From the NCBI GenBank assembly GCA_017428485.1, contig JAFRQT010000026.1, positions 8,699 through 72,698 of the forward strand: a stretch of DNA of 64,000 nt, given 5' to 3'. Position 1 is the first letter of the stretch, and every line of letters begins with the position of its first letter. A program made the position numbers and the translations under genes. Below are positions 3,066 through 47,818 of the stretch, in pieces. The stretch is from Bacilli bacterium (GTDB lineage Bacteria; Bacillota_I; Bacilli_A; RF39; UBA660). The notes below the pieces were generated by a model. That model was not told the DNA's origin. It saw only the letters and a list, made by a program, of their open reading frames with translations, and made no database searches.

Positions 3066-3639
3066 ATAATCACCATATTAATAATACATTTTTTTGCACC
3101 AAAAAACAACCAGTTCTGATAAAACATGATTGTTTCGAGTTTCTGAAAACGAATTATGAATCATTTATATTAGAAGAGGTTAATCATAACTTAAAAATTA
3201 ATTTAAATTATGAAGAACCAAATTAATATAAACATCTCTAAATATTATCAGTATTTAGCATAATTTCTTATCTTTTTGAGTTTTGCTTTCTCAACGTTAT
3301 AACATTTGTCCTTAGTAGATAAGCATTCTATTTCTTAAATTGATTAAGAAGATTTGATATTTATATAAGGTAATTAATATTATTAAGTAAAATATATATA
3401 AACAATCAATAAATTAATATTAACTATAAATATATATTGAAAAAAAATAATAATATAATTTTATATAAATAAGAAATTTATATAGAATTTTTTCACTAAA
3501 ATAATTAATTTGAATTAAATATAATAAATAATTAAATATAAATATAAAATTTATAGATAAGAATTTAAAATAAATAAAATTAATTATCTATTGGACATTT
3601 ATATATTATCAAATATAAAAATGTATGTCAACACTTTTT

Positions 3640-3683
3640 TTAAAAAAAATAAAAAAATGTCATTTTTTGTAAAATGACATTTT
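3640..3683 (-). terminator. rho-independent terminator after the hydrogenase gene
   Basis: 13-bp arms AAAATGTCATTTT / AAAATGACATTTT (3654-3666 and 3671-3683) with a long U-tract on the minus strand. Confidence 0.6.
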
Positions 3684-5193
3684 AATTAACCTTGTCTTCT
3701 AATAGATAATGCTTATCACTATATGTTGTGTGCAATAGTTTAAAACTCTCTTCGCTTAAAGGTTGATGCAAATAATTTTTATATAATTTTTTTAATTCAT
3801 CATTATCATGAGCACATCTTTTTGCTCTTTGCTTATCTATATTGAATAATCCTTTTGATCTTTCTTCCCTATATTTATCTAAATCTTTTATCGGACATAG
3901 TGGTTGGCCTCCACCACCTACGCAGCCACCCTGACAGTTCATTACTTCAATAAAGTGATATTTCTTGTATTCATTATTTTTTAACAATTCCTCAAGATTT
4001 GACAATTGATGTACAACTGCCACTCTTAGTTTATATTCTCCAATATTTATTGTAGCAGTCTTAATTCCATCATAATTTCTTAATGATGTAAAAACTAGTT
4101 CATCTTTTTTTAGATTTGTTTTCATCATTATTCTATATAATGTTCTTATAACTGATTCGCAAACACCACCTGTAGTTCCAAACATTACTCCACCACCGCT
4201 GCTTTCACCCATTAAGCTATCAAATTTTTCATCTTTTAATGACTCAAATTTAATATCTTCTTCTTTTAATAAAATTGAAAGTTCACTACATGTCATTACA
4301 TAATCTATATTAATTGTATATTCTCTTGCTTCCATTTTTTTAGCAGTGCATGGTGTGATAGCGACTGTTACTATCTTATTTGGATCAAAGCCTTTTTGCT
4401 CACAAAAATAACTTTTTATTATTGCACATTGCATACCTATAGGGCTTTTACAACTTGATAAGTTATTTAATAGTTCTGGATGATATATTTCAGCATATTT
4501 AACCCATGCAGGGCAGCAACTAGTAAATTGTGGTAATGATTTTTTATTTGTTAACCTTGATGCAAATTCAGCAACTTCTTCTAAAATAGTTAAGTCTGCT
4601 CCAAATGCAGTATCAAAGACATAATCAAAACCTAATTCCTTTAATGCAGATACCAATTTTCCTTCGGCGTTCTCACCGTTTTCTAACCCAAAACTTTCTC
4701 CTATAGCTACTCTAACTGCTGGAGATATTAATGCAACAACTATTTTTTCATTAGCATCAATTATTTGTTTAACATCTTTATAACAATATTTTGGCACCAG
4801 TGCACCAGTTGGGCAATTTAATATACATTGACCACATCCTATACATATAGGTTCTTTGCATTTATTTAAATCATATGAGATATTTACTTTGTTTTCACAA
4901 GTGTTTCTACACTGACCACAATTAATACATTTTTCTATTATTCTTGAAATACAATAATTATTATCACTAATTCTTACTTTTTTATCTTCTAATGTGTCAT
5001 TGATTATTTTGCTTTTCTTTTCATTTAATGCATCTTCTAAAACAGAATCTATAATAGAGTCTAAATTATCATATACTGGTTCTGACTCATTAAATTTATC
5101 TTTAGTAGCATTACACATGGGACATATAAAATCTTCTTCTATCTCTTCACTTTCAAAAATATAGCCACAATTTGTACATATATATTTTTTCAT
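3682..5193 (-). CDS. hydA: [FeFe]-hydrogenase catalytic subunit with N-terminal rubredoxin-like Cys4 module and two 4Fe-4S ferredoxin motifs
   Basis: H-cluster motifs FTSCCPAW, TPCTAKKMEA and EVMNCQGGCVGGGGQP. CxxCxxCxxxC motifs CINCGQCRNTC and CIGCGQCILNCP. N-terminal CTNCG..CPMC. Confidence 0.9.
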   Translation of the reverse strand: MKKYICTNCGYIFESEEIEEDFICPMCNATKDKFNESEPVYDNLDSIIDSVLEDALNEKKSKIINDTLEDKKVRISDNNYCISRIIEKCINCGQCRNTCENKVNISYDLNKCKEPICIGCGQCILNCPTGALVPKYCYKDVKQIIDANEKIVVALISPAVRVAIGESFGLENGENAEGKLVSALKELGFDYVFDTAFGADLTILEEVAEFASRLTNKKSLPQFTSCCPAWVKYAEIYHPELLNNLSSCKSPIGMQCAIIKSYFCEQKGFDPNKIVTVAITPCTAKKMEAREYTINIDYVMTCSELSILLKEEDIKFESLKDEKFDSLMGESSGGGVMFGTTGGVCESVIRTLYRIMMKTNLKKDELVFTSLRNYDGIKTATINIGEYKLRVAVVHQLSNLEELLKNNEYKKYHFIEVMNCQGGCVGGGGQPLCPIKDLDKYREERSKGLFNIDKQRAKRCAHDNDELKKLYKNYLHQPLSEESFKLLHTTYSDKHYLLEDKVN

Positions 5194-10713: not shown

Positions 10714-11220
10714 CTAAAATAAATTTTTTATTACTTTGATTAATTTAAAATCATATTTCACTTCTTCATCATCTAAATTTTCATCTATCATACATAATGG
10801 CGGATATAATATACACCAATAATTATTGCCTTTTCCTTCTCCAATTTCTATAACTAAACTTTCGTATTCTCCTTCTTTAAAAATTTGATTATTATACTTT
10901 TTTTTAGGAAAATGATTCATACCATAGCTTATGTTATAGTTCATATTGTAATTATTCTCAGTAAATACTTGATTAATATCATTTTGAATATTCTCAATAT
11001 TATTAATAATATTTTCTCGTGTCATTTCAATGTTATCTTCTTTTTTAAATAGAGTTTTAGATAAAACATTAACTACTTTCATTTTCATAATTATATCAAT
11101 AGAGGAATTACTATTAGCTATTACTCTAAATCTAATAGCATCTTCAGTTAAATTATTTTGATTATCTGATAAGAATATTATTACTAAAATAATAAATAAT
11201 CCTAAAAATATTTTTTTCAT
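10714..11220 (-). CDS. spoIIR: stage II sporulation protein R
   Basis: Signal peptide, IRFRVIANSNS and NYWCILYPPLCMID, matching the SpoIIR signature blocks. Confidence 0.8.
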   Translation of the reverse strand: MKKIFLGLFIILVIIFLSDNQNNLTEDAIRFRVIANSNSSIDIIMKMKVVNVLSKTLFKKEDNIEMTRENIINNIENIQNDINQVFTENNYNMNYNISYGMNHFPKKKYNNQIFKEGEYESLVIEIGEGKGNNYWCILYPPLCMIDENLDDEEVKYDFKLIKVIKNLF

Positions 11221-15634: not shown

Positions 15635-16831
15635 TTATTCTTCAATTTTTGTTCCGCATTCACTACAGAACTTTCCAGTAACTACTGCTCCGCAATTTGG
15701 ACAAGTTTTTTCTTCAGATTTTGGCTCTTGTGTTTGTTCATTTGCTTTTTCTTCAGCTGATTCTTCAACTTTTTCTTCTGGTTTTGCAAATAATGTTCCC
15801 ATTTCAGGTTGTTGATTTCCTGGATTGTATGGTGGAACATCGGACCCTTGATTTGCAGCATTCATCATTGCTCCAGCAGCACCTGATGCCATGTTCATTC
15901 CCATGAATCCCATCATAGCGCCATTTGCATTACTTGATGCATTTCTAAGGGCATCTGCAGAAGCAGAAGCCATTAATCCAGATTGTAAATTCTTATTAGA
16001 GAATATTGTTGCTTCATCAATCTTATTAACTTTAACCATTGATTCATCTGTTAAGTTAATATCCCCTAATGCAACATCTGTAACTTCAAGTCCATAATTT
16101 TTTCTCCATGATTCATCTAAACATGTATTCATTTCATCAGAAATATCGCTATTATATAGACCAATATCTCCAAATGAAACTTTATGTTTTCTCATTACAA
16201 TTGATATTGCTTGAGTTAATTTTTCAACAAATTTTGCTTGCAATTGAGTTCCAATTATTTCATCATAAGTTACTGTATCTTTTGGATTTGCTCCAATTAC
16301 ACTATTTACAAGTAATACTGGATCTACAACTTTAAATGCATATTCTCCAAAGAATGTAACCTCTAACATACCATATTTTTCATCAGTTATTTTTTTTGGC
16401 TGTGGTGAACCAAATTTATTACCAGTTATATTTAGTAAATTTACATAGTAAACTCTTTGATCTTTTGCGGCTTGTCCACCATATGTAAAACGTTTACCAA
16501 TTGTTTTAATAGTATTTAAAATTCCTTCACCAAGTCCTCCTGTAAAAATACTTGGTTCACTACCAGTATCAAATGTATATGTTCCACTTTCTGCAGTAAA
16601 TTCTTTTACTTCTCCATTTTCAATGATCATCATTGCCATTCCTTGTGGTACAGCAATTCCACTTCCGTTTGATATTACTCCTTCAGTAGGATTAGTATTT
16701 CCTTTTCCGTGATTTACTACACCTCTTTGAATAAGAACATCTTTTTCAATTGTAGGACAGGTAACAAATTCTTTAAATTGGTCACCTAATGTAGATGATG
16801 CTGCACTTACTAGTGCTTTAATTAATCCCAT
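15635..16831 (-). CDS. SPFH/band-7-like protein with C-terminal zinc ribbon (YdjI/COG4260-like)
   Basis: MGLIKALVSAA.. N-terminus typical of the family. C-terminal CPNCG..CSECG ribbon after a low-complexity linker. Confidence 0.72.
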   Translation of the reverse strand: MGLIKALVSAASSTLGDQFKEFVTCPTIEKDVLIQRGVVNHGKGNTNPTEGVISNGSGIAVPQGMAMMIIENGEVKEFTAESGTYTFDTGSEPSIFTGGLGEGILNTIKTIGKRFTYGGQAAKDQRVYYVNLLNITGNKFGSPQPKKITDEKYGMLEVTFFGEYAFKVVDPVLLVNSVIGANPKDTVTYDEIIGTQLQAKFVEKLTQAISIVMRKHKVSFGDIGLYNSDISDEMNTCLDESWRKNYGLEVTDVALGDINLTDESMVKVNKIDEATIFSNKNLQSGLMASASADALRNASSNANGAMMGFMGMNMASGAAGAMMNAANQGSDVPPYNPGNQQPEMGTLFAKPEEKVEESAEEKANEQTQEPKSEEKTCPNCGAVVTGKFCSECGTKIEE

Positions 16832-16865: not shown

Positions 16866-16904
16866 AAAAAAGAAAAAAGAAAAAAAGTACTAATTAGTAC
16901 TTTT
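16866..16904 (-). terminator. rho-independent terminator after the noc-like gene
   Basis: 16-bp palindrome AGTACTAATTAGTACT followed on the minus strand by a long U-rich run. Confidence 0.55.
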
Positions 16905-17955
16905 CAATTTCAATTGTTATTTGATATTTATCTGCTAATTCTATTTTTTCTGTTTTAATATTATTTTTTCCAATTGAATAGTTATCAATAATATTACTTA
17001 AATAATTATATATTTCTTCTGAATTATCTTTTTTCTCTATTTCAATTGGTGTAGGTCTTGATTCAATATATTGCTCATCGCTGTTTGTACTCAATTGAAA
17101 TGGATTAATAGCCTCTTCGGTTGAAGTTGTTTCAGTTAATGCTTCGGTATGTTCCTCTTCTATTTTTGTATTTTCTTTTATTATATTTTTTTCATCTTCA
17201 TCTTCTATTGGTTGAATATCAGGTATTCCTATATCGAGAAATTCTATAGTTTCTTCTTTTGCTTCTGGTTTTTGATCATTTTTATTTTCTGGTCTTAAAA
17301 ATCTTTGAATTTCCTCTGGTATATAGTTTTCTTGTTTTATATTATCTCTCATTAATAATAAATTAATTTCTTCTTCTGTTTGTTTAACTGTTAATCTATC
17401 ACTAATTATTTTCTTTAATAAACTTTTTTGTAAATCTTCATTATTTAATGTTAATAAACTTCTAGCGTGCCTTTCAGATATTTGATTGTATAAAAGAGCA
17501 TCTTTTATTTCTTTAGGAAGACTTAACAATCTCATTTTATTAGCTATTGCAGATTGACTTATTCCAAGTTTAGAAGCTATTTCTTCTTGAGTAAATCCTC
17601 TATCTATTAATTTTTTATATGATTGAGCTTCTTCTATTACAGACAAATCTTTTCTTTGCAAATTTTCAAGTAATGCTATTTCTGCACTAGTATTATCATC
17701 TGTATTATTTAGTACTGCTGGTATTGATTTTAAACCAGCTAAACAAGCAGCTTTGTATCTTCTTTCCCCTGCAATTATTTCATATTTTTCGCCAATTTTT
17801 CTAACTACTATTGGCTGAATAACTCCATACTTAATAATAGATTCGGACAAATTATTTAATTCTTGCTCATCAAAAGCAAGCCTAGGTTGAAACCTATTTG
17901 GCAATATGTCTTCAACATTTATATAGTAAATTTTTTCGTTATTATTTTCTTCCAT
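16894..17955 (-). CDS. noc: ParB/Noc-family CTPase DNA-binding protein, Noc-like recognition helix, atypical termini
   Basis: PNRFQPR and GERRYKAA (ParB N-domain/CTP motif). HTH region GISQSAIANKMRLLSLP..ISERHARSL. Position next to rsmG. An in-frame TAG 21 nt upstream of the ATG excludes a longer N-terminus. Confidence 0.8.
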   Translation of the reverse strand: MEENNNEKIYYINVEDILPNRFQPRLAFDEQELNNLSESIIKYGVIQPIVVRKIGEKYEIIAGERRYKAACLAGLKSIPAVLNNTDDNTSAEIALLENLQRKDLSVIEEAQSYKKLIDRGFTQEEIASKLGISQSAIANKMRLLSLPKEIKDALLYNQISERHARSLLTLNNEDLQKSLLKKIISDRLTVKQTEEEINLLLMRDNIKQENYIPEEIQRFLRPENKNDQKPEAKEETIEFLDIGIPDIQPIEDEDEKNIIKENTKIEEEHTEALTETTSTEEAINPFQLSTNSDEQYIESRPTPIEIEKKDNSEEIYNYLSNIIDNYSIGKNNIKTEKIELADKYQITIEIEKY

Positions 17956-18020: not shown

Positions 18021-18725
18021 TTATTTATAACTTTTCAATATAATATTATAATTTCTTGGATATTTTATATTATTTTTGTTAATTTTTTTATAAATAGGTA
18101 TCGTTCTATTTGCGTTATTAATAGGTAATTTGTATTCGATTTTATTAATAAGTCTAATATTTAATTCTTTTTCTAAATATGAATATTTATTTATTTCTTC
18201 ATCACAGTTTGATTTTAATGGAATTATTAATCCACTTATTTTTAATGAATTAACACTTAATTCTAATATTATAGGTATAGAAGTTACAGCTCTACATGTG
18301 ATTAAATCAAATTTTTCAGTATTCTTTCTACTATAATTTTCCATTCTATCATTTATAACTACCACATTATTTAATTTTAGTTCTTTAATTACTTCATTTA
18401 AAAAAGTGCATTTCTTATTATTTGATTCAATCAGTGTTATTTTTAATTTATTAAATATTATTGCTAGTGCTAATCCTGGAAATCCTGCTCCAGTTCCAAA
18501 ATCGCATAAACTCGAATAATTATTTAAATTTACTGATTTTGAAAGACATAAAGAATCATAAAAGTGTAATAAAAATACTTCTTTTTTTTCTATGATAGTA
18601 GTCATATTAAATTTTTTATTCCATTCAACAAGTAAATTAAAGTACTTTTCAAATTTTAAATATATTTCATCATCTATAATTATATTTATTTTTTTACATT
18701 CACTAATAAACTCTTCTTTATTCAT
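18021..18725 (-). CDS. rsmG: 16S rRNA (guanine527-N7)-methyltransferase
   Basis: GidB-type sequence with SAM motif DFGTGAGFPGL. Conserved position after mnmG. Confidence 0.88.
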   Translation of the reverse strand: MNKEEFISECKKINIIIDDEIYLKFEKYFNLLVEWNKKFNMTTIIEKKEVFLLHFYDSLCLSKSVNLNNYSSLCDFGTGAGFPGLALAIIFNKLKITLIESNNKKCTFLNEVIKELKLNNVVVINDRMENYSRKNTEKFDLITCRAVTSIPIILELSVNSLKISGLIIPLKSNCDEEINKYSYLEKELNIRLINKIEYKLPINNANRTIPIYKKINKNNIKYPRNYNIILKSYK

Positions 18726-23864: not shown

Positions 23865-23923
23865 AATATTTCCTTTTCGAATAATATTATATAAAAAAAA
23901 TTACTTAATTTAAAGTAATTTAT

Positions 23924-24046
23924 TTATTTTGATAATTCTTTTCTTCCTTTTGCTCTTCTTGATTTTAATACTGAACTACCTCTTCTAGATAAAAAACCTG
24001 ATGTTTTACTTTTTTTACTATTATTAGGTTGAAATGTTCTTTTCAT
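23924..24046 (-). CDS. rpmH: 50S ribosomal protein L34
   Basis: Not in the ORF track. Hand translation gives [48 protein letters not shown] upstream. Confidence 0.93.
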
Positions 24047-24395
24047 AATTTTCCTCCCTTTCTTAATTACTGAATTAGATTATATAATATCAATTTACAA
24101 TTGTCAATTTTTATATTTTTTAAAAATATTATGTTAACTTCTATTTAATTATATTAACAACATATTAACAAAATAAAAAATAGTTATTAACAAATTATCA
24201 ACATAAAAATTATATGTTAATAAAATTTTGTTGATATTGTTGATAACTTATTAAAATACCTATAAATTCGACATAAAATTGTTTACATTATCAACAATTG
24301 TTGTTAATATAAATGTTAATAAAATTTTTTACTTTGACATTGCAAATGGATGATTTATAATTTTATTAGAAGTATTTGAGAAAGGAATTTAGATT
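24047..24395. other. oriC, upstream DnaA-box cluster (rpmH-dnaA spacer)
   Basis: TTATCAACA at 24195-24203 and 24288-24296 (+). TGTTGATAA at 24238-24246 and TGTTGATAT at 24229-24237 (-). Several TTAACA/TTATTAACA variants. The gene-strand switch occurs here. Confidence 0.8.
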
Positions 24396-25787
24396 ATGAG
24401 TAATGATGCTATATGGGAAAAATTTTTAACTAGAATAAAATCTAAAGTTTCTCTGATGTCATTTAATTATATTTTTAAAGATCTTAGACTTTACTCATAT
24501 GAAAATTCAAAAATAACAATAGTTATACCTTCAAATGAGTTGCTACTCCAAAATATAAATAAAAATTATAATGATATAATTGAAGAAATATTAAATGATA
24601 TTACAAATGATACATGTGAGATAAAATATGTTTTTGATAAAGATATAGACAAAATATTATTGGATAATAAAATTGTAAATATTGATGAAATTGAAACTAA
24701 AAAAGAAAAAAATGATTTAGATAAATATAATTATAGTAGCAATTTTAATCCAAAATATACTTTTGATACTTTTATTGTTGGTGAATCTAATAAATTAGCT
24801 TATGGAACAGCATTATCTGTAGCAAAAAATCCTGGTAAATTATACAATCCTTATTTTATATATGCTAAAAGTGGACTTGGTAAAACTCATTTAATGCATG
24901 CTATTGGTAATTATATTGTTAGTCATTCAGATAAAAAAGTTTTATATATTACAGCAGAACAATTTACTATTGATTATAGATCTATTTTAAATTATAAGAA
25001 TAAAAATGATAATAATTTTTCATATTTAGAAGCTTTTAGAGAAAAATATAGAAATGTTGATGTTTTAATGATTGATGACATTCAATTTTTAGAAAATATG
25101 CCTAAATCTCAAGTAGAATTTACAAATACATTTAATAGTTTATATGAAAATGAAAAACAAATAATTATTGCTTCTGATACATCTATTAATGATTATAAGA
25201 AAATTGAAGAAAGACTGAAAACAAGATTTAGATGGGGTTTAACTGAATCAATTAATCCACCTGAAATAGAATTAAAGAAAAATATTATAAGAAATAAAAT
25301 TAAAATTAATAATTATGATTTAGATATTAGTGATAACGTAGTTGATTATATTGCAAATAACTGCGGTAGTGACATTAGAAATTTAGAAGGTGCAGTTGTA
25401 AGAATAATTGCATATAAAGCTACATTTAACATTCCAGTTGTTACTTTAGAAATAGCACAAGAAGCATTAAAAGAATTCGTTCCTACTGTTGTTTATAGTA
25501 CTAATTCTGTTACTAAAATAATTGAAATAGTAGCTAAATACTTTAATTTAGATTCTGCAATGTTAAAAGGCAAAATGAAAAAGAAAAATGTTACAGATGC
25601 TCGTGCAATAGCGATGTATTTAAGTAGAAACATGACTGATGAAAGTTTAGAAAGGATAGGATTAGAATTTGGAGGTAGAGATCATTCAACAGTAATATAT
25701 TCTTATGAGAAAATATCTAATGAATTAAAAACTAATATTCAGTTACAACAAGAAATAAAAAAATTAAAAGATAAAATTTGTGAATAA
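24396..25787 (+). CDS. dnaA: chromosomal replication initiator protein DnaA
   Basis: AAA+ Walker A GKSGLGKTHL, Walker B LMIDDIQF, and a domain IV DnaA signature (GGRDHSTVIYS). Confidence 0.97.
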   Translation: MSNDAIWEKFLTRIKSKVSLMSFNYIFKDLRLYSYENSKITIVIPSNELLLQNINKNYNDIIEEILNDITNDTCEIKYVFDKDIDKILLDNKIVNIDEIETKKEKNDLDKYNYSSNFNPKYTFDTFIVGESNKLAYGTALSVAKNPGKLYNPYFIYAKSGLGKTHLMHAIGNYIVSHSDKKVLYITAEQFTIDYRSILNYKNKNDNNFSYLEAFREKYRNVDVLMIDDIQFLENMPKSQVEFTNTFNSLYENEKQIIIASDTSINDYKKIEERLKTRFRWGLTESINPPEIELKKNIIRNKIKINNYDLDISDNVVDYIANNCGSDIRNLEGAVVRIIAYKATFNIPVVTLEIAQEALKEFVPTVVYSTNSVTKIIEIVAKYFNLDSAMLKGKMKKKNVTDARAIAMYLSRNMTDESLERIGLEFGGRDHSTVIYSYEKISNELKTNIQLQQEIKKLKDKICE

Positions 25788-27070: not shown

Positions 27071-27121
27071 ATTTGACAAAATTCGATAAATATCGACAAA
27101 TGCTATATGTTATTGTATAAA
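27071..27121 (+). promoter_or_regulatory. three phased 10-bp direct repeats overlapping a promoter for the ComK-family gene
   Basis: ATTTGACAAA / ATTCGATAAA / TATCGACAAA at 27071-27100. TCGACA (27093-27098), a 17-bp spacer, then the extended -10 TGTATAAA (27114-27121). Confidence 0.45.
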
Positions 27122-27148
27122 ACATTATTTAAGAAAGGGGGAAAATTC

Positions 27149-27607
27149 ATGAATTACGAAATTAATTATGATACACAGCTTATTATGCCCATAAATGAAC
27201 AGCAATCTAAAATCATAGAAAATGAAGATGAATATATTATTAATAATACAACTCTTGAAATAATGGAGCATAGTTGTGAATATTTTGGCAGTTCATTTCA
27301 GGGAAGAAAAGATGGAACTAAAAAATTACTTGGTATTACTCATAAGTCACCTATAATAGTTGAAGAAAGTAATAAAGTAATATTTTTTCCTACTGTTTCG
27401 CCTGAAAATGAGGAATGTTCTTGGATAAATTTAGAATCTATTGATAAGTATTATAAAATTAATTCTAACAAATCAGCCATATTATTTAAAAATGGAACTT
27501 TGATAGAATTTAATATTTCTTATGGCTCTTTAAGTAATCAAATTTTAAGAGCAACTAGATTAAAATATGTACTTGAAGAAAGAACAGAAAAAAAGAGTAA
27601 TTTTTAA
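27149..27607 (+). CDS. comK: ComK-family competence transcription factor homologue
   Basis: SCEYFGSSFQGRKDGT..THKSPIIV..IFFPTVSP..CSWI..ISYGSLSNQILRA parallels the B. subtilis ComK blocks. GGGGG RBS before ATG 27149. Confidence 0.78.
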   Translation: MNYEINYDTQLIMPINEQQSKIIENEDEYIINNTTLEIMEHSCEYFGSSFQGRKDGTKKLLGITHKSPIIVEESNKVIFFPTVSPENEECSWINLESIDKYYKINSNKSAILFKNGTLIEFNISYGSLSNQILRATRLKYVLEERTEKKSNF

Positions 27608-30723: not shown

Positions 30724-33252
30724 ATGGAAGAAGATATTAAAGAAAATGAAAATACTGAAGAAGAATTTGAAAATATTGATAAAGTAAGTATTGACAATAA
30801 TAACTTCAGTGGATATTTTCATGAAAGAGATAGATTAGATCATAATAATATAGTTGATGAAGTAAAAACATCTTTTATGGAATATTCAATGAGTGTTATT
30901 GCTTCTCGTGCACTTCCTGATTTAAGAGATGGTTTAAAACCAGTTCACAGAAGAATTTTATGGTCAATGTATGAATCAGGTTATACACCAGATAAACCTC
31001 ATAGAAAAAGTGCAAAAACTGTTGGTGAAGTTATGGGTAATTATCACCCACACGGAGATTCATCAATATATGAAGCAATGGTTCGTTTAGCACAAGATTT
31101 CAACCAAAGATATATGTTAATAGATGGACATGGAAACTTTGGTAATATTGAGGGTGATGGAGCAGCTGCAATGCGTTATACAGAATCAAGATTAGCAAAA
31201 ATATCACTAGAATTATTAAGAGATATTAATAAAGATACAGTTGATATGGATGATAATTTTGATGTTACAAGAAAAGAACCAAAAGTATTGCCATCAAGAT
31301 TTCCAAATGTTTTAGTAAATGGCTCTATGGGTATAGCGGTTGGTATGGCAACAAATATACCACCACATAATCTTGGTGAAGTTATAGATGGATGTGTTGC
31401 TTATATTGATAATCCAAATATAGATGTGCTTGGATTAATGGATTATATAAAAGGTCCTGATTTTCCAACTGGCGGAATAATTTTAGGTAATTCGGGAATA
31501 AAAAAAGCATACGAAACTGGACGAGGATCAATTACTATTCGTGGTAAAGCAACAATTGAGGAATCTGATGGACATAATACTATAGTATTTACTGAAGTTC
31601 CATATGGTGTTAATACAATGGAATTAAAAAATAAAGTAGCTGAATTAGTTCATACGAAAGTAATTGATGGAATTTCTGATTATCACACTGATTTAAAAGA
31701 TGGTGTTAAGATAACAATAACATTAAAGAAAGATGCAAATCCACAAGTAGTTTTAAATAATCTATATAAGCATACCGCATTTCAAGTAAATTATGGAATT
31801 ATATTCTTAGTGTTAGATGGTTTAACTCCTAAAACACTTGGTCTAAAAGATATAATTGCTAAATATATAGATCATCAAAAAGAAGTAATAATTAGAAGAA
31901 CTAAGTTTGATTTAATAAAAGATGAAAAAAGAGTTCATATTCTAGAAGGTTATAAAATTGCTTTAGATCATATAGATGAAGTAGTTAAAATAATAAGGAA
32001 TGCTAAAACAGATGAAGAAGCTAAAACAAATTTAATAGATAAATTTGGATTAGATATGATTCAAGCAGAAGCAATTCTTGAATTGAAGTTGAGAAGATTA
32101 ACTGGATTAGAAAGAGACAAAATTGAAAATGAACTAGCTGAATTATTAAAAGAAATTGAAGAATTAAAATCAATTTTAGCTAGCGAGGAAAAAGTGTTAC
32201 AAATTATTAAGAAAGAAATGTTGGAAATTAAAGATAGATATGCCGATGAAAGACGTACAACAATTGATAATACAGCAATAGAATATATTGAAGATGAGTC
32301 TTTAATTCCACAAGAAGAAATAATAGTTACTATTACCAATAAGAATTATATTAAGAGAATATCTAAAGATACTTATAGAGTACAACATAGAGGTGGAGTT
32401 GGTATTAAAGGAATGACAACTACAGAAGAAGATTTCGTAGAACAATTAATATCACTAAATACTCATGATCATATATTATTCTTTACTAACAAAGGAAAAG
32501 TATATAGACTAAAAGGTTATAAAATACCAGAATACTCTCGTACTGCAAAAGGATTACCAATTATTAACTTATTGCCTATTGATAAAGAAGAAAAAGTAAA
32601 CGCAATGATTAAGATAAGTAATAACGACACGTACAAATGTTTGATATTTGCAACAAAAAAAGGCTTAATTAAACGTACTTTAGTTAGTGAATTCGATAAT
32701 ATAAGGCAAACAGGTAAAATAGCTATCACTTTAAAAGAAGATGATGAACTAATATCTGTAAAAAAGACAACTGGTGAAGATCAAGTTCTAATGTGTTCAT
32801 CAAATGGTAGAATGGCTAGGTTTGACGAAAATGAAATTAGAATAATGGGAAGAACAGCTGCTGGAGTAAGAGGAATTAATCTTACTAATGATGAGTGCGT
32901 TGGAATGGAAATATCAGATCCTGAAAAATTACTATTAGTTGTTACAGAAAAAGGATACGGTAAAAAAACAGTAATTGATGAATATAGACAAACAAAACGT
33001 GGAAGCAAAGGAGTTAAAACTCTAAACATTTCAGAAAAGAATGGAAAGATAGTTAGTTTCAAAGCAACTGACAATAATAAAGACTTATTACTTATCACAA
33101 AAAACGGAATGATTATTAGAATAAGTGTAGAATCAGTATCTCAAATGGGAAGAGTTACAAAAGGTGTTAGATTGATCAATTTAAAAGACAACAATGAGGT
33201 AGCGTCTATTTCTGTTATTGAAAAAGAAGAAGAAAAAGAAGATGAAGAATAA
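30724..33252 (+). CDS. gyrA: DNA gyrase subunit A
   Basis: Active-site region AAMRYTE, a QRDR-like HPHGDSSIYEA, and a C-terminal beta-pinwheel with an acidic tail. Confidence 0.97.
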   Translation: MEEDIKENENTEEEFENIDKVSIDNNNFSGYFHERDRLDHNNIVDEVKTSFMEYSMSVIASRALPDLRDGLKPVHRRILWSMYESGYTPDKPHRKSAKTVGEVMGNYHPHGDSSIYEAMVRLAQDFNQRYMLIDGHGNFGNIEGDGAAAMRYTESRLAKISLELLRDINKDTVDMDDNFDVTRKEPKVLPSRFPNVLVNGSMGIAVGMATNIPPHNLGEVIDGCVAYIDNPNIDVLGLMDYIKGPDFPTGGIILGNSGIKKAYETGRGSITIRGKATIEESDGHNTIVFTEVPYGVNTMELKNKVAELVHTKVIDGISDYHTDLKDGVKITITLKKDANPQVVLNNLYKHTAFQVNYGIIFLVLDGLTPKTLGLKDIIAKYIDHQKEVIIRRTKFDLIKDEKRVHILEGYKIALDHIDEVVKIIRNAKTDEEAKTNLIDKFGLDMIQAEAILELKLRRLTGLERDKIENELAELLKEIEELKSILASEEKVLQIIKKEMLEIKDRYADERRTTIDNTAIEYIEDESLIPQEEIIVTITNKNYIKRISKDTYRVQHRGGVGIKGMTTTEEDFVEQLISLNTHDHILFFTNKGKVYRLKGYKIPEYSRTAKGLPIINLLPIDKEEKVNAMIKISNNDTYKCLIFATKKGLIKRTLVSEFDNIRQTGKIAITLKEDDELISVKKTTGEDQVLMCSSNGRMARFDENEIRIMGRTAAGVRGINLTNDECVGMEISDPEKLLLVVTEKGYGKKTVIDEYRQTKRGSKGVKTLNISEKNGKIVSFKATDNNKDLLLITKNGMIIRISVESVSQMGRVTKGVRLINLKDNNEVASISVIEKEEEKEDEE

Positions 33253-33265
33253 TCTTCTTTTTTAA

Positions 33266-33281
33266 TGTTCCACGTGGAACA
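33266..33281. promoter_or_regulatory. parS site 1 (perfect symmetric TGTTCCACGTGGAACA)
   Basis: Exact 16-mer embedded in a 32-bp perfect palindrome at 33258-33289, 6 bp after the gyrA stop. Confidence 0.8.
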
Positions 33282-33298
33282 TTAAAAAATATACAAAA

Positions 33299-33314
33299 TA
33301 TTTCCCGGGAAATA
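33299..33314. promoter_or_regulatory. Noc-binding-site-like palindrome 1 (TATTTCCCGGGAAATA)
   Basis: Exact 16-mer within a 24-bp perfect palindrome at 33295-33318. Matches the B. subtilis NBS consensus ATTTCCCGGGAAAT. Confidence 0.7.
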
Positions 33315-33357
33315 TTTTATAGTAGAATACTACTAAAGTGTAAGACAAAGAAAACAA

Positions 33358-33373
33358 AGTTCCACGTGGAACA
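33358..33373. promoter_or_regulatory. parS site 2 (AGTTCCACGTGGAACA, one mismatch)
   Basis: 15 of 16 positions match the symmetric parS. Confidence 0.7.
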
Positions 33374-33468
33374 TTATTTTCTTTAATTATAAAGTTGTTA
33401 AATTAGTTATTTATATAGCTAGTTTGTTATAACATATTATTAAGTTGATAATATAATTTTATTTTTAA

Positions 33469-33484
33469 TGTTCCACGTGGAACA
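33469..33484. promoter_or_regulatory. parS site 3 (perfect)
   Basis: Exact 16-mer within a 30-bp perfect palindrome at 33462-33491. Confidence 0.8.
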
Positions 33485-33606
33485 TTAAAAATAATACTTT
33501 TGTTAATTACTTATTCGATAGTATATTAAATAATAATTATAATTTTTTAATATAATAATCATTTTTATATGATTAATTGCTTAATAATATATTATTATAT
33601 AACTAA

Positions 33607-33622
33607 TGTTCCACGTGGAACA
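33607..33622. promoter_or_regulatory. parS site 4 (perfect)
   Basis: Exact 16-mer within a 28-bp perfect palindrome at 33601-33628. Confidence 0.8.
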
Positions 33623-33830
33623 TTAGTTTTCTTTTTCAATAAACTAGATCAAATACAGTTATTTTATATATGATGTTTTATATTTTAACTACCGCATTAA
33701 TAATCTATATAGATTATATTTTTAATTTACATCTAAATTAAATATTAACTTATTATATTTACATTAGTATCATTTATATATATTTACAGATACTTTTCAT
33801 GTTAAATATTGTATAAAAATTATTGAAAAT

Positions 33831-33846
33831 TATTTCCCGGGAAATA
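33831..33846. promoter_or_regulatory. Noc-binding-site-like palindrome 2 (TATTTCCCGGGAAATA)
   Basis: Second exact copy of the 16-mer, about 530 bp from the first. Confidence 0.7.
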
Positions 33847-33938
33847 TTTTTTTAAATATTATGTTAACTTTTAATATTTAATTACTAAAAAATGAAATAA
33901 TACTTGATTATTAAAATAAAATAATATAAAATAATTTT

Positions 33939-34010
33939 GTGCAATGAGAAATAAATGAAACAGGTCAGAATCGGAAGATAGCAGCCTTAAATTTGTTTCT
34001 CATGTGCACA
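33939..34010 (+). ncRNA. ffs: signal recognition particle RNA, short 4.5S-type (no Alu domain)
   Basis: Single hairpin with an 18-bp closing stem (GTGCAATGAGAAATAAAT / ATTTGTTTCTCATGTGCAC). Apical CAGGTCAGAATCGGAAGATAGCAGCC is the domain IV consensus with a GGAA tetraloop. TTGATT-17-TAAAAT promoter at 33904-33932 and a T-run at 34013-34018. Confidence 0.75.
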
Positions 34011-34044
34011 TATTTTTTATATAAGGATGCGAATAAGTGTTTGT

Positions 34045-44131: not shown

Positions 44132-44629
44132 ATGAATCAAACTGGTATCATAAGAAAAATAGATGATTTAGGGCGTATAGTATTACCAAAAGAATTAAGA
44201 AAGCATTTAAATATTAATTCAGGCGATGACTTTCAAATTTTATTAGATGGTGAAAGAATAATTTTAGAAAAATATTCATATTTAAAAAAATATAATAAAG
44301 AACTATTAAAAATAATAGATTGTTTCAATGAAATTAAAAATTATGATATAAATTTGATAATAAATAATAAAATAATTAATAAAGACAACATTGTAATAAA
44401 TAATAAATATATTGATATTATTAAGGAAAGAAAAATATATATAAATGATTTAGTTTCAAAAATAGAAATATCTAAAAACATAATTAAAGAGGGAAAATTA
44501 GTAATATATCCAATTGTAATAAATAGTGATTTACTGGGTTCAATATTAATAATATCTAATGATAAAATAGAAAACGTATTAAACTATGCTAAAGTAATTA
44601 ACAATTTGATTAAGAACTATTATATATAA
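44132..44629 (+). CDS. spoVT: stage V sporulation protein T (AbrB-type N-domain + GAF-like C-domain)
   Basis: TGIIRKIDDLGRIVLPKELRK SpoVT/AbrB swapped-hairpin motif. Length and position after mfd are as in Bacillus. Confidence 0.8.
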   Translation: MNQTGIIRKIDDLGRIVLPKELRKHLNINSGDDFQILLDGERIILEKYSYLKKYNKELLKIIDCFNEIKNYDINLIINNKIINKDNIVINNKYIDIIKERKIYINDLVSKIEISKNIIKEGKLVIYPIVINSDLLGSILIISNDKIENVLNYAKVINNLIKNYYI

Positions 44630-47068: not shown

Positions 47069-47818
47069 ATGTTTAAAATTGGAGATTATGTGACAAGAAG
47101 AAAACATAATAATGATATAGTTTTTAAAATAGTTAAAATAGATAAAAATATTGTTTATTTAATGGGGGCAGATGTAAGACTTTTCGCTAATTCAACAATA
47201 GATGATTTAGTAGAATGCAAATATTGTAAAAAAAAAGAAAATTTTGACATAAAAAGAGAATTAAATATAAGCAAGTATTTCTATATTCCGGGCAAAGTGC
47301 TACATGTTGATACAGATGAAGAATATATGGATAGATGTGAAAAATATTATCGAAGTCAAAAAGTAAGATGTTTTGTCTATCACTTCAATATTAAAGACTT
47401 TGAAAAAAATATTATTAATCTGATAGAAAAAAATAATCCTGATATAGTAGTTATAACTGGACATGATGCATATTATAAAAATGAGAATAAATATTTGAAC
47501 AGTGATTACTATATTAGAACAGTTAAGAAAATAAGACAAAAATATAAAAATTATAATGATTTAATAATTATTGCCGGAGCCTGTCAAAGCAATTATGAGG
47601 GATTAATGATGTCTGGAGCAAATTTTGCATCAAGCCCAACACATTCAAATATACATGCCCTTGATCCTGCAATAATTGCTGCAGACGTTTCATATTCAAA
47701 TATTGACAAAAAAATAGACATAGAGAAAATATTAAATGATACTAACTACGGCAGTAAAGGTTTTGGTGGAATAATAATTAATGGAATAATGAAGTATGGA
47801 TTTCCAAGAAAGGAATAA
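47069..47818 (+). CDS. yabG: sporulation-specific peptidase YabG
   Basis: MFKIGDYVTRRKHNNDIVFKIV.. N-terminus and VVITGHDA..GACQS blocks characteristic of YabG. Confidence 0.85.
   Translation: MFKIGDYVTRRKHNNDIVFKIVKIDKNIVYLMGADVRLFANSTIDDLVECKYCKKKENFDIKRELNISKYFYIPGKVLHVDTDEEYMDRCEKYYRSQKVRCFVYHFNIKDFEKNIINLIEKNNPDIVVITGHDAYYKNENKYLNSDYYIRTVKKIRQKYKNYNDLIIIAGACQSNYEGLMMSGANFASSPTHSNIHALDPAIIAADVSYSNIDKKIDIEKILNDTNYGSKGFGGIIINGIMKYGFPRKE

Follow-up and report, generated by a model that had tools for sequence, protein, structure and literature searches.

A composite array of parS and Noc-binding-site palindromes downstream of gyrA as a probable origin-proximal centromere in uncultured gut Bacilli

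Introduction

ParB and Noc are the textbook pair for the duplication of a DNA-binding protein that gains a new specificity and a new cellular job, and the known examples are spatially separate, with few parS sites at the origin and dozens of Noc-binding sites (NBSs) over the chromosome. Iterated plasmid centromeres such as sopC of F are short non-coding segments in which a single binding site is repeated at close spacing. In the ParABS system of Bacillus subtilis, about 10 single parS sites are distributed across the origin-proximal region, and several of these lie within genes (PMC7022226). Clusters of parS near oriC that form one ParB nucleoprotein complex have been described for Pseudomonas aeruginosa (parS1-4), Caulobacter, Streptomyces coelicolor and Corynebacterium glutamicum (PMC4368675, PMC5815017, PMC7083940), and several parS sites per 5 kb window occur in gut Firmicutes (PMC10197239). 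B. subtilis and Staphylococcus aureus share the 16-mer TATTTCCCGGGAAATA as NBS (PMC7383237, PMC5540599), and classical NBSs number about 40 to 70, spread through half to two-thirds of the chromosome on the origin-proximal side; in S. aureus, 41 loci were mapped (PMC5540599). Here we describe a 64,000-nucleotide stretch of DNA from a Bacilli bacterium (assembly GCA_017428485.1, contig JAFRQT010000026.1; hereafter, the window), in which the tract between gyrA and the gene for the small signal recognition particle (SRP) RNA, ffs, carries parS and NBS palindromes side by side.

We consider it likely, with a probability of roughly 0.7, that ParB-family proteins load chiefly onto the gyrA-to-ffs tract and that this tract is an origin-proximal centromere built of two kinds of 16-bp palindrome, parS and NBS, which would be read by separate proteins. 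Taken by itself, the parS array belongs to a known kind, within which it is denser and purely intergenic; the mixture of parS and NBS is new as far as we found. Our literature search yielded no earlier description of the interleaving of parS and NBS, of origin-restricted NBSs, or of a large Noc-type subfamily without the N-terminal helix. Widespread uncultured gut Bacilli place both site types in one dense origin array, with a helix-less protein of the Noc type as the predicted reader of the second.

Results

Four parS sites and two NBSs between gyrA and ffs

The composite tract (33253..33932; the tract, its palindromes and oriC are given without strand) is non-coding and AT-rich, with a GC content of ~0.19. 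It starts right after the gyrA stop codon at 33252 (gyrA, 30724..33252, + strand), as had been stated in the original prediction, and is bounded on the right by ffs (33933..34018, + strand), 3' of which tadA, dnaX, ybaB and recR follow in that order. All parS sites and NBSs of the 64 kb window fall within it. Given that the sign of the GC skew switches at ~24 kb between rnpA/rpmH and dnaA, the presumed oriC was placed in that intergenic region (23865..24395), at the skew minimum and ~9 kb from the site cluster; the distance to dnaA, earlier put at ~9 kb, is 8.9 kb to the dnaA start at 24396. A cluster of DnaA boxes, or second origin, in the tract was considered and rejected: related tracts hold 0 to 5 boxes (≤1 mismatch) in an inconsistent manner, and that of the window holds 0.

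The four parS sites on which the original prediction of a dedicated centromere was founded were all found. Three are exact copies of TGTTCCACGTGGAACA, namely parS-1 (33266..33281), the core of a 32-bp perfect palindrome (33258-33289), parS-3 (33469..33484), the core of a 36-bp palindrome (33459-33494), and parS-4 (33607..33622), the core of a 28-bp palindrome (33601-33628). The remaining site, parS-2 (33358..33373; AGTTCCACGTGGAACA), has one mismatch at position 1 (AGTT...). The centre-to-centre distances of 92, 111 and 138 bp proved correct, and the longer A/T-armed palindromes reported around three copies are those measured here at 32, 36 and 28 bp. The sites thus match the canonical ParB consensus TGTTNCACGTGAAACA in three exact copies and one copy with a single mismatch. 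When ≤2 mismatches were allowed, 4 parS matches were observed against 0.00 expected from 100 dinucleotide-preserving shuffles, and a search of the 64 kb window outside the tract with ≤3 mismatches to TGTTNCACGTGNAACA gave merely two poor matches, which is the chance level.

These parS palindromes had been taken for almost the only G/C-containing elements of the tract. This description overlooked two perfect ATTTCCCGGGAAAT palindromes at 33300-33313 and 33832-33845, each of which extends to the 16-mer TATTTCCCGGGAAATA and thus to a perfect NBS. The centre of NBS-1 (33299..33314) lies 33 bp from that of parS-1, and NBS-2 (33831..33846) lies ~90 bp upstream of the SRP RNA gene and is found at the same position in the closest relative (locus L004). 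The 2 perfect copies in the window compare with an expectation of 0.14 even with 2 mismatches allowed. Given that two perfect NBSs lie inside the tract, it is a mixed array of parS and NBS and no pure parS cluster.

Conservation of the array in related gut Bacilli

A DnaA-based scan of the GTDB species representatives yielded 36 related loci, each of ~21 kb, all of which derive from uncultured gut Bacilli, "Mollicutes" or "Clostridium sp. CAG" metagenome-assembled genomes (MAGs) with a GC content of 22-27%. Conservation was counted in the 29 loci that reach past gyrA, whose DnaA proteins are 67-97% identical. The tract from gyrA to tadA/dnaX contained 2-9 parS sites and 1-7 NBSs in 29 of 29 loci, for totals of 145 parS and 48 NBS, and neither type of site was found outside the tract in ~0.5 Mb of origin-proximal DNA of these relatives. 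The commonest layout was a parS, NBS, parS triplet at the gyrA-proximal end followed by a parS every 100-230 bp. NBS-rich genomes also exist, such as L028 with 7 NBS and 2 parS. The parS/NBS composite is conserved across this clade of uncultured gut bacteria.

The parS logo of the relatives, TGTT[C/T]CACGTG[G/A]AACA with an A before it and a T after it, varies solely at position 5 and its mirror position. The NBS logo is ATTTCCCGGGAAAT preceded by T and followed by A, with 47 of 48 copies perfect and the T and A flanks conserved at 97-100%. Across 26 orthologous tracts, the conserved 10-mers were those of NBS (26/26), parS (25/26) and the SRP RNA, with no others. Between the window and its nearest relative L004 (DnaA 97% identical), identity was 97% over the site columns and 68% over the remainder of the tract, and the two genomes differ by gains and losses of individual sites. 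These comparisons indicate that the sites are held by purifying selection across at least 29 related genomes. Sequence-invariant cores with diverged flanks are the pattern of protein-binding sites, unlike that of structure-only elements such as terminators.

Compared with ParABS of B. subtilis (Spo0J), the array has the same origin-proximal 16-bp palindrome, TGTTNCACGTGAAACA, with variation confined to the N position and its mirror, and its presumed role would be alike, that is, nucleation of ParB, CTP (cytidine triphosphate)-dependent spreading and loading of SMC. It differs in that 2-9 parS sites lie within 0.1-1.1 kb of one intergenic tract and are interleaved with a second class of palindrome. 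The known parS clusters likewise group several parS sites close to oriC, but they span kilobases to tens of kilobases and contain parS alone, whereas the present array is denser (60-230 bp spacing), purely intergenic and mixed with sites for a paralogous protein. The dense clustering had been called unusual; four sites are indeed packed into intergenic DNA, but origin-proximal clusters of parS had already been reported in gut Firmicutes and other phyla, and the density of the array is less exceptional for that reason (PMC10197239, PMC4368675, PMC7022226).

An rsmG-linked Noc-like protein as the predicted reader of NBS

A Noc-like ParB-family gene (16894..17955, − strand; 353 amino acids), the product of which is the predicted NBS reader, lies directly downstream of rsmG (gidB; 18021..18725, − strand), and the two genes adjoin in the window and in all relatives. 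In origin regions of the Bacillus type, rsmG is the syntenic marker found upstream of noc, and the Noc-like gene occupies the position that noc has in Bacillus. ParB_N and HTH_ParB domains were detected in the protein, together with the CTP-binding boxes GERR and ENLQR, and its C-terminal domain is preceded by an acidic linker. Its best NCBIfam model was TIGR04285 (nucleoid_noc), with a score of 266.7 bits that is below the cutoff of 315, and among solved structures it matched Noc best (7NFU, 7NG0 and 7OL9; 174-193 bits) and Spo0J less well (165 bits).

The four specificity positions (173, 179, 184 and 201) are occupied by Q-K-S-R in the window protein (Q173, K179, R201), a mapping that was confirmed by residue-by-residue alignment. 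All 24 of the 24 rsmG-linked orthologues in the clade have Q173, K or R at 179, N, S or V at 184, and R201. Jalal et al. 2020 (PMC7383237) showed that A1 and C6 of the NBS are read by Q173 and R201, respectively, and that a single Lys at 179 or 184 is enough for NBS, whereas R173 and G201 show absolute conservation among ParB proteins and every parS-binding variant requires R173. On the basis of Q173, K179 and R201, the Noc-like protein is predicted to read NBS rather than parS. The variants QKNR, QKSR, QRNR and QKVR were not found in the portion of the supplementary data of Jalal et al. 2020 (PMC7383237) that was accessible.

The N-terminal helix of Noc is extremely conserved among Noc proteins and is essential for function (Adams et al. 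2015, PMC4331003). As judged from sequence, charge and hydrophobic moment, the window protein has no such amphipathic membrane-targeting helix. Its N-terminus, MEENNNEKIYY, has a charge of −2 and a hydrophobic moment of 0.13, and ~16 residues precede the PNRFQPR box versus 39 in B. subtilis Noc. A basic amphipathic helix was rejected given that the N-terminus is acidic and its hydrophobic moment low, and a hidden N-terminal extension of the gene was rejected given an in-frame stop 7 codons upstream of the start. The lack of a membrane helix makes classical nucleoid occlusion unlikely for this protein.

An exhaustive search of 1.8 billion representative proteins was performed, and the best 150 representatives, which belong to the Noc-like subfamily alone, were analysed. 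Q173 together with K or R at 179 and R201 was present in 149 of these best 150, with exact QKNR in 113, and the N-terminus was short in nearly all of them. Their lengths ranged from 242 to 848 amino acids as a result of the variable acidic linker. About half of the subfamily representatives carry I, V or L at the position equivalent to K171. By these features, the window protein is assigned to a large helix-less Noc-type subfamily, as a paralogue of the Noc lineage.

Immediately downstream of the Noc-like gene lies a gene for an SPFH/Band-7 and zinc-ribbon protein (15635..16831, − strand). The trio of rsmG, Noc-like gene and SPFH/Band-7 gene is conserved in nearly all genomes of the clade (L004-L037), with SPFH proteins 77-94% identical. 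That the SPFH protein serves as a membrane-associated partner of the helix-less Noc-like protein is speculation. In the one closed clade genome, L035 (CP091739.1), the Noc-like gene (1217-1850) appears to be broken by a frameshift or truncation, with a tblastn match in two pieces and an open reading frame of 205 amino acids; this may be an assembly error or a pseudogene.

NBSs in metagenome contigs and their pairing with parS

We scanned a metagenome collection for NBSs that carry the A/T flanks of this clade (at least 120 contigs, median GC 0.27) and recorded at least 215 NBSs. Among the matches listed, 91% lay in or next to genes of the window's origin gene set, defined as the genes ~30 kb either side of the origin, and ~48% of the 215 NBSs lay in the gyrA-tadA tract, mostly beside parS arrays. 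Secondary spots among the matches listed (L044-L163) were inside dnaX (21), in recF-gyrB (8), jag/mnmE (9), mnmE/mnmG (7) and pth/rsmI (5), all of them within the origin gene neighbourhood. Given that 91% of the NBSs among the matches listed are located among origin-region genes, NBSs are restricted to the origin in this sample and not dispersed. Within the flank-biased sample of the matches listed, the NBS in these lineages is a feature of the centromere or origin.

The distance from an NBS to the nearest parS, centre to centre and among the matches listed, peaked at 22-36 bp and was never <18 bp. At least six contigs (L050, L091, L081, L062, L052 and L107) carried either strictly alternating parS/NBS tandem arrays, with units of 105, 119 or 123 bp, or repeated parS-NBS pairs, in which the partners are ~29 bp apart and the pairs recur every 200-270 bp. 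These arrays suggest that a module of parS and NBS was amplified as a unit. Like iterated plasmid centromeres of the sopC type, the array has multiple close copies of its sites, and some of the metagenome contigs contain true tandem repeats of 105-123 bp. It differs from them in being chromosomal, in its use of chromosomal parS and in the alternation of two site types, and the array of the window has irregularly spaced sites with non-repeated DNA between them.

A comparison with the Noc-NBS system of B. subtilis and S. aureus shows both likeness and difference. The 16-mer TATTTCCCGGGAAATA is identical, the gene is located beside rsmG like noc, and Q173, K179, R201 and the CTP-binding boxes are held in common, with Noc as the best match in the structural database. 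Unlike Noc, the window-type protein lacks the amphipathic helix, has N, S or V in place of K184, possesses a long variable acidic linker and scores under the NCBIfam Noc cutoff (266.7 vs 315), and NBSs are concentrated at the origin and paired with parS, not scattered, in the clade loci and among the metagenome matches listed. The protein thus departs from Noc in three of the features by which Noc is recognised (helix, dispersed NBSs and model cutoff) and conforms to it in three others (NBS sequence, Q/K/R residues and rsmG synteny).

Two palindromes, two proposed readers

We classified the palindromes that match the union of the parS and NBS patterns in all loci: 126 were pure parS, 46 were pure NBS, and 0 were half-parS/half-NBS hybrids. 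The lack of hybrids among 172 exact sites argues for two separate readers, because a relaxed single reader should tolerate hybrids whereas strict homodimers should not. When the window and all loci were searched by tblastn, a single ParB-family gene was detected in each locus and Soj in none; in this respect the clade differs from B. subtilis, with no ParA or canonical ParB gene near the origin in the loci searched.

Three outgroup lineages (L102; L164-167; L168 and L170), in which MnmG is ~60% identical to that of the window as against ≥77% within the clade, contain a canonical pair. In all three of these lineages (3/3) the ancestral gene order is rsmG, Noc-like, ParA, ParB, ychF, rpsF, ssb, rpsR, rplI, dnaB, and neighbourhoods obtained with a YchF bait showed further outgroups with this order. 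The outgroup Noc-like proteins have QK[S/A]R and a short N-terminus, and the outgroup ParB proteins have R173, G or S at 201 and an N-terminal RRALGRGLEELF motif. Ser at ParB position 201 (LSMSHAR, ISMSHAR) was observed in two of the lineages (L164, 10001-10882; L170, 6982-7869); S or T at this position was linked to dual-specificity variants by Jalal et al. 2020 (PMC7383237).

Whereas soj-spo0J follows the Noc-like gene in the outgroup lineages, the soj-spo0J/ychF-dnaB block is gone from this position in the clade, and the SPFH/Band-7 gene is there instead. Given that the block holds the essential genes rpsF, ssb, rpsR, rplI and dnaB, it must have moved and not been deleted, and relocation of ParAB along with it is therefore plausible. 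We regard it as probable that a canonical ParB is encoded elsewhere in the genomes of this clade. The partition system of S. aureus is reported to be incomplete, and some ParB-bearing Firmicutes are naturally without ParA, so that a missing ParA would not be disqualifying.

In the two-protein arrangement that we favour, parS (TGTT[C/T]CACGTG[G/A]AACA) would provide nucleation sites for canonical ParB/Spo0J, and the Noc-like protein encoded next to rsmG would nucleate at the TATTTCCCGGGAAATA sites. Homodimers of each protein would load on the cognate palindrome, as a rule 22-36 bp away from a site of the other type, and would spread or slide over the origin region, the two proteins jointly forming one composite partition or origin-organising complex. 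Both proteins keep the CTP-binding boxes, and both presumably close into clamps and spread for that reason; actual binding, CTP-dependent clamping, spreading and SMC recruitment at the tract are inferred from sequence. The Noc-like protein might co-organise the origin, bound the spreading of ParB or act as a tether through its conserved SPFH neighbour, or it might control replication initiation as Noc of S. aureus does (PMC5540599). With regard to the dedicated centromere of the original prediction, the match to consensus, the origin-proximal position, the confinement to one tract and the conservation remain in its favour at the level of sequence, whereas the tract has turned out to be a composite of parS and NBS and the ParB-family protein encoded nearby to be a predicted reader of NBS.

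More tentatively, and at somewhat less than even odds in our estimation, the rsmG-linked protein may represent a large unrecognised branch of the Noc lineage that reads NBS, has no membrane-tethering role in occlusion and works at the centromere beside ParB or possibly in its place. If the arrangement is as proposed, the same DNA is loaded with two paralogous CTP-dependent clamps at a distance of 20-40 bp from each other, which would offer a natural system for the study of how such clamps share, compete for or insulate DNA. In the evolutionary transition from ParB to Noc that Jalal et al. 2020 discussed, it would also be a candidate for an intermediate stage or for a reversal. As a surviving intermediate of neofunctionalisation, it would have its specificity switched, its sites still centromeric and its helix not yet acquired; the alternative would be secondary re-targeting in gut Bacilli with reduced genomes. 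The order gyrA, parS/NBS array, ffs would then be a practical marker of centromeres and origins in MAGs of this group, and automatic labels of "ParB" or "Noc" on these proteins would be misleading.

Evidence against two readers and alternative explanations

Several observations weigh against a centromere with two separate readers. A canonical ParB or ParA was found neither in ~81 kb of the source scaffold, namely the window and ~8 kb past each of its edges, nor in the 10 kb that flank dnaA on each side in the genomes of the clade. With ParB of the outgroup L102 as bait, all matches listed were ≥76% identical and within that lineage, and with the slowly evolving neighbour YchF as bait they extended down to 77% identity; neither search reached the clade. 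K184 is absent from the Noc-like protein, and its counterpart of K171, which contacts DNA and is otherwise conserved in both ParB and Noc, is I, V or L in the clade, so that the real specificity of the protein could differ from that predicted. The survey of sites in the clade covered origin-region loci and ~81 kb of the source scaffold, and the A/T flanks used in the metagenome scan favour intergenic NBSs, with the consequence that sites in coding regions are possibly under-sampled.

Some of these observations would be accommodated by a one-protein system, in which canonical ParB has been lost and the Noc-like protein alone binds both palindromes. All clade sequence searched contains one ParB-family gene and no ParA, the ancestral soj-spo0J slot holds the SPFH gene, and the differences from classical Noc at K184 and K171 make an altered or relaxed specificity conceivable. 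We nevertheless consider such a single reader unlikely. Q173 and R201 specify NBS, whereas binding to parS invariably requires R173 (PMC7383237); hybrid palindromes number 0 among the 172 exact sites; the Noc-like subfamily coexists with canonical ParAB in three outgroup lineages; and the block that is missing beside the Noc-like gene, with its essential genes, has moved and not been deleted.

Slightly less likely still is the combination of a plain parS centromere with ordinary nucleoid occlusion, in which the NBSs of the tract would be the origin-nearest part of a chromosome-wide set and uncoupled from parS. Both the coverage of partial genomes by the clade scans and the preference of the A/T-flanked metagenome pattern for intergenic sites leave room for this explanation. 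A dispersed set would, however, place a few percent of its members near the origin, whereas 91% of the 215 NBSs are located there, and about half in one tract, among the matches listed, and 0 NBSs lie outside the tract in ~0.5 Mb of clade origin regions. The tight pairing of parS and NBS at 22-36 bp and the strictly alternating tandem arrays of some contigs also argue against uncoupled sites, as does a protein without the N-terminal amphipathic helix that is required for Noc function (PMC4331003).

That the palindromes are intrinsic transcription terminators or repetitive extragenic palindromic (REP)-like structural repeats, and not protein-binding sites, is very improbable: although three parS palindromes with T-runs score as terminator-like (5 sites vs 0.1 expected) and the palindromes lie between the convergently ending gyrA and the ffs promoter, their 16-bp cores are invariant in sequence while the flanks have diverged, where compensatory stem changes would be expected instead, and match exactly two known protein-binding consensus sequences, the NBSs have no T-run context, and up to 9 copies occur in one tract against 0 at other gene ends in about 0.6 Mb, with the copies all over the genome that the original prediction named as the sign of a REP-like element absent from the rest of the ~81 kb searched in the source scaffold and from ~0.5 Mb of the relatives' origin regions.

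Other features of the window and source scaffold

A comK-family gene is located between dnaN and recF (27107-27607, + strand), and the window also contains spoIIR (10714-11220), a SpoVT-like gene (44132-44629) and yabG (47069-47818). Together these four genes indicate that competence and sporulation genes are kept in a probably small genome of ~24% GC. At 3238-3330 (− strand), upstream of a [FeFe]-hydrogenase gene at 3682-5193, lies a PGK RNA motif (Rfam RF03040, 85.5 bits). In the source scaffold ~8 kb to the left of the window, positions 20671-21074 of L040 contain the start of a very large called gene of 3281 amino acids with no Pfam match.

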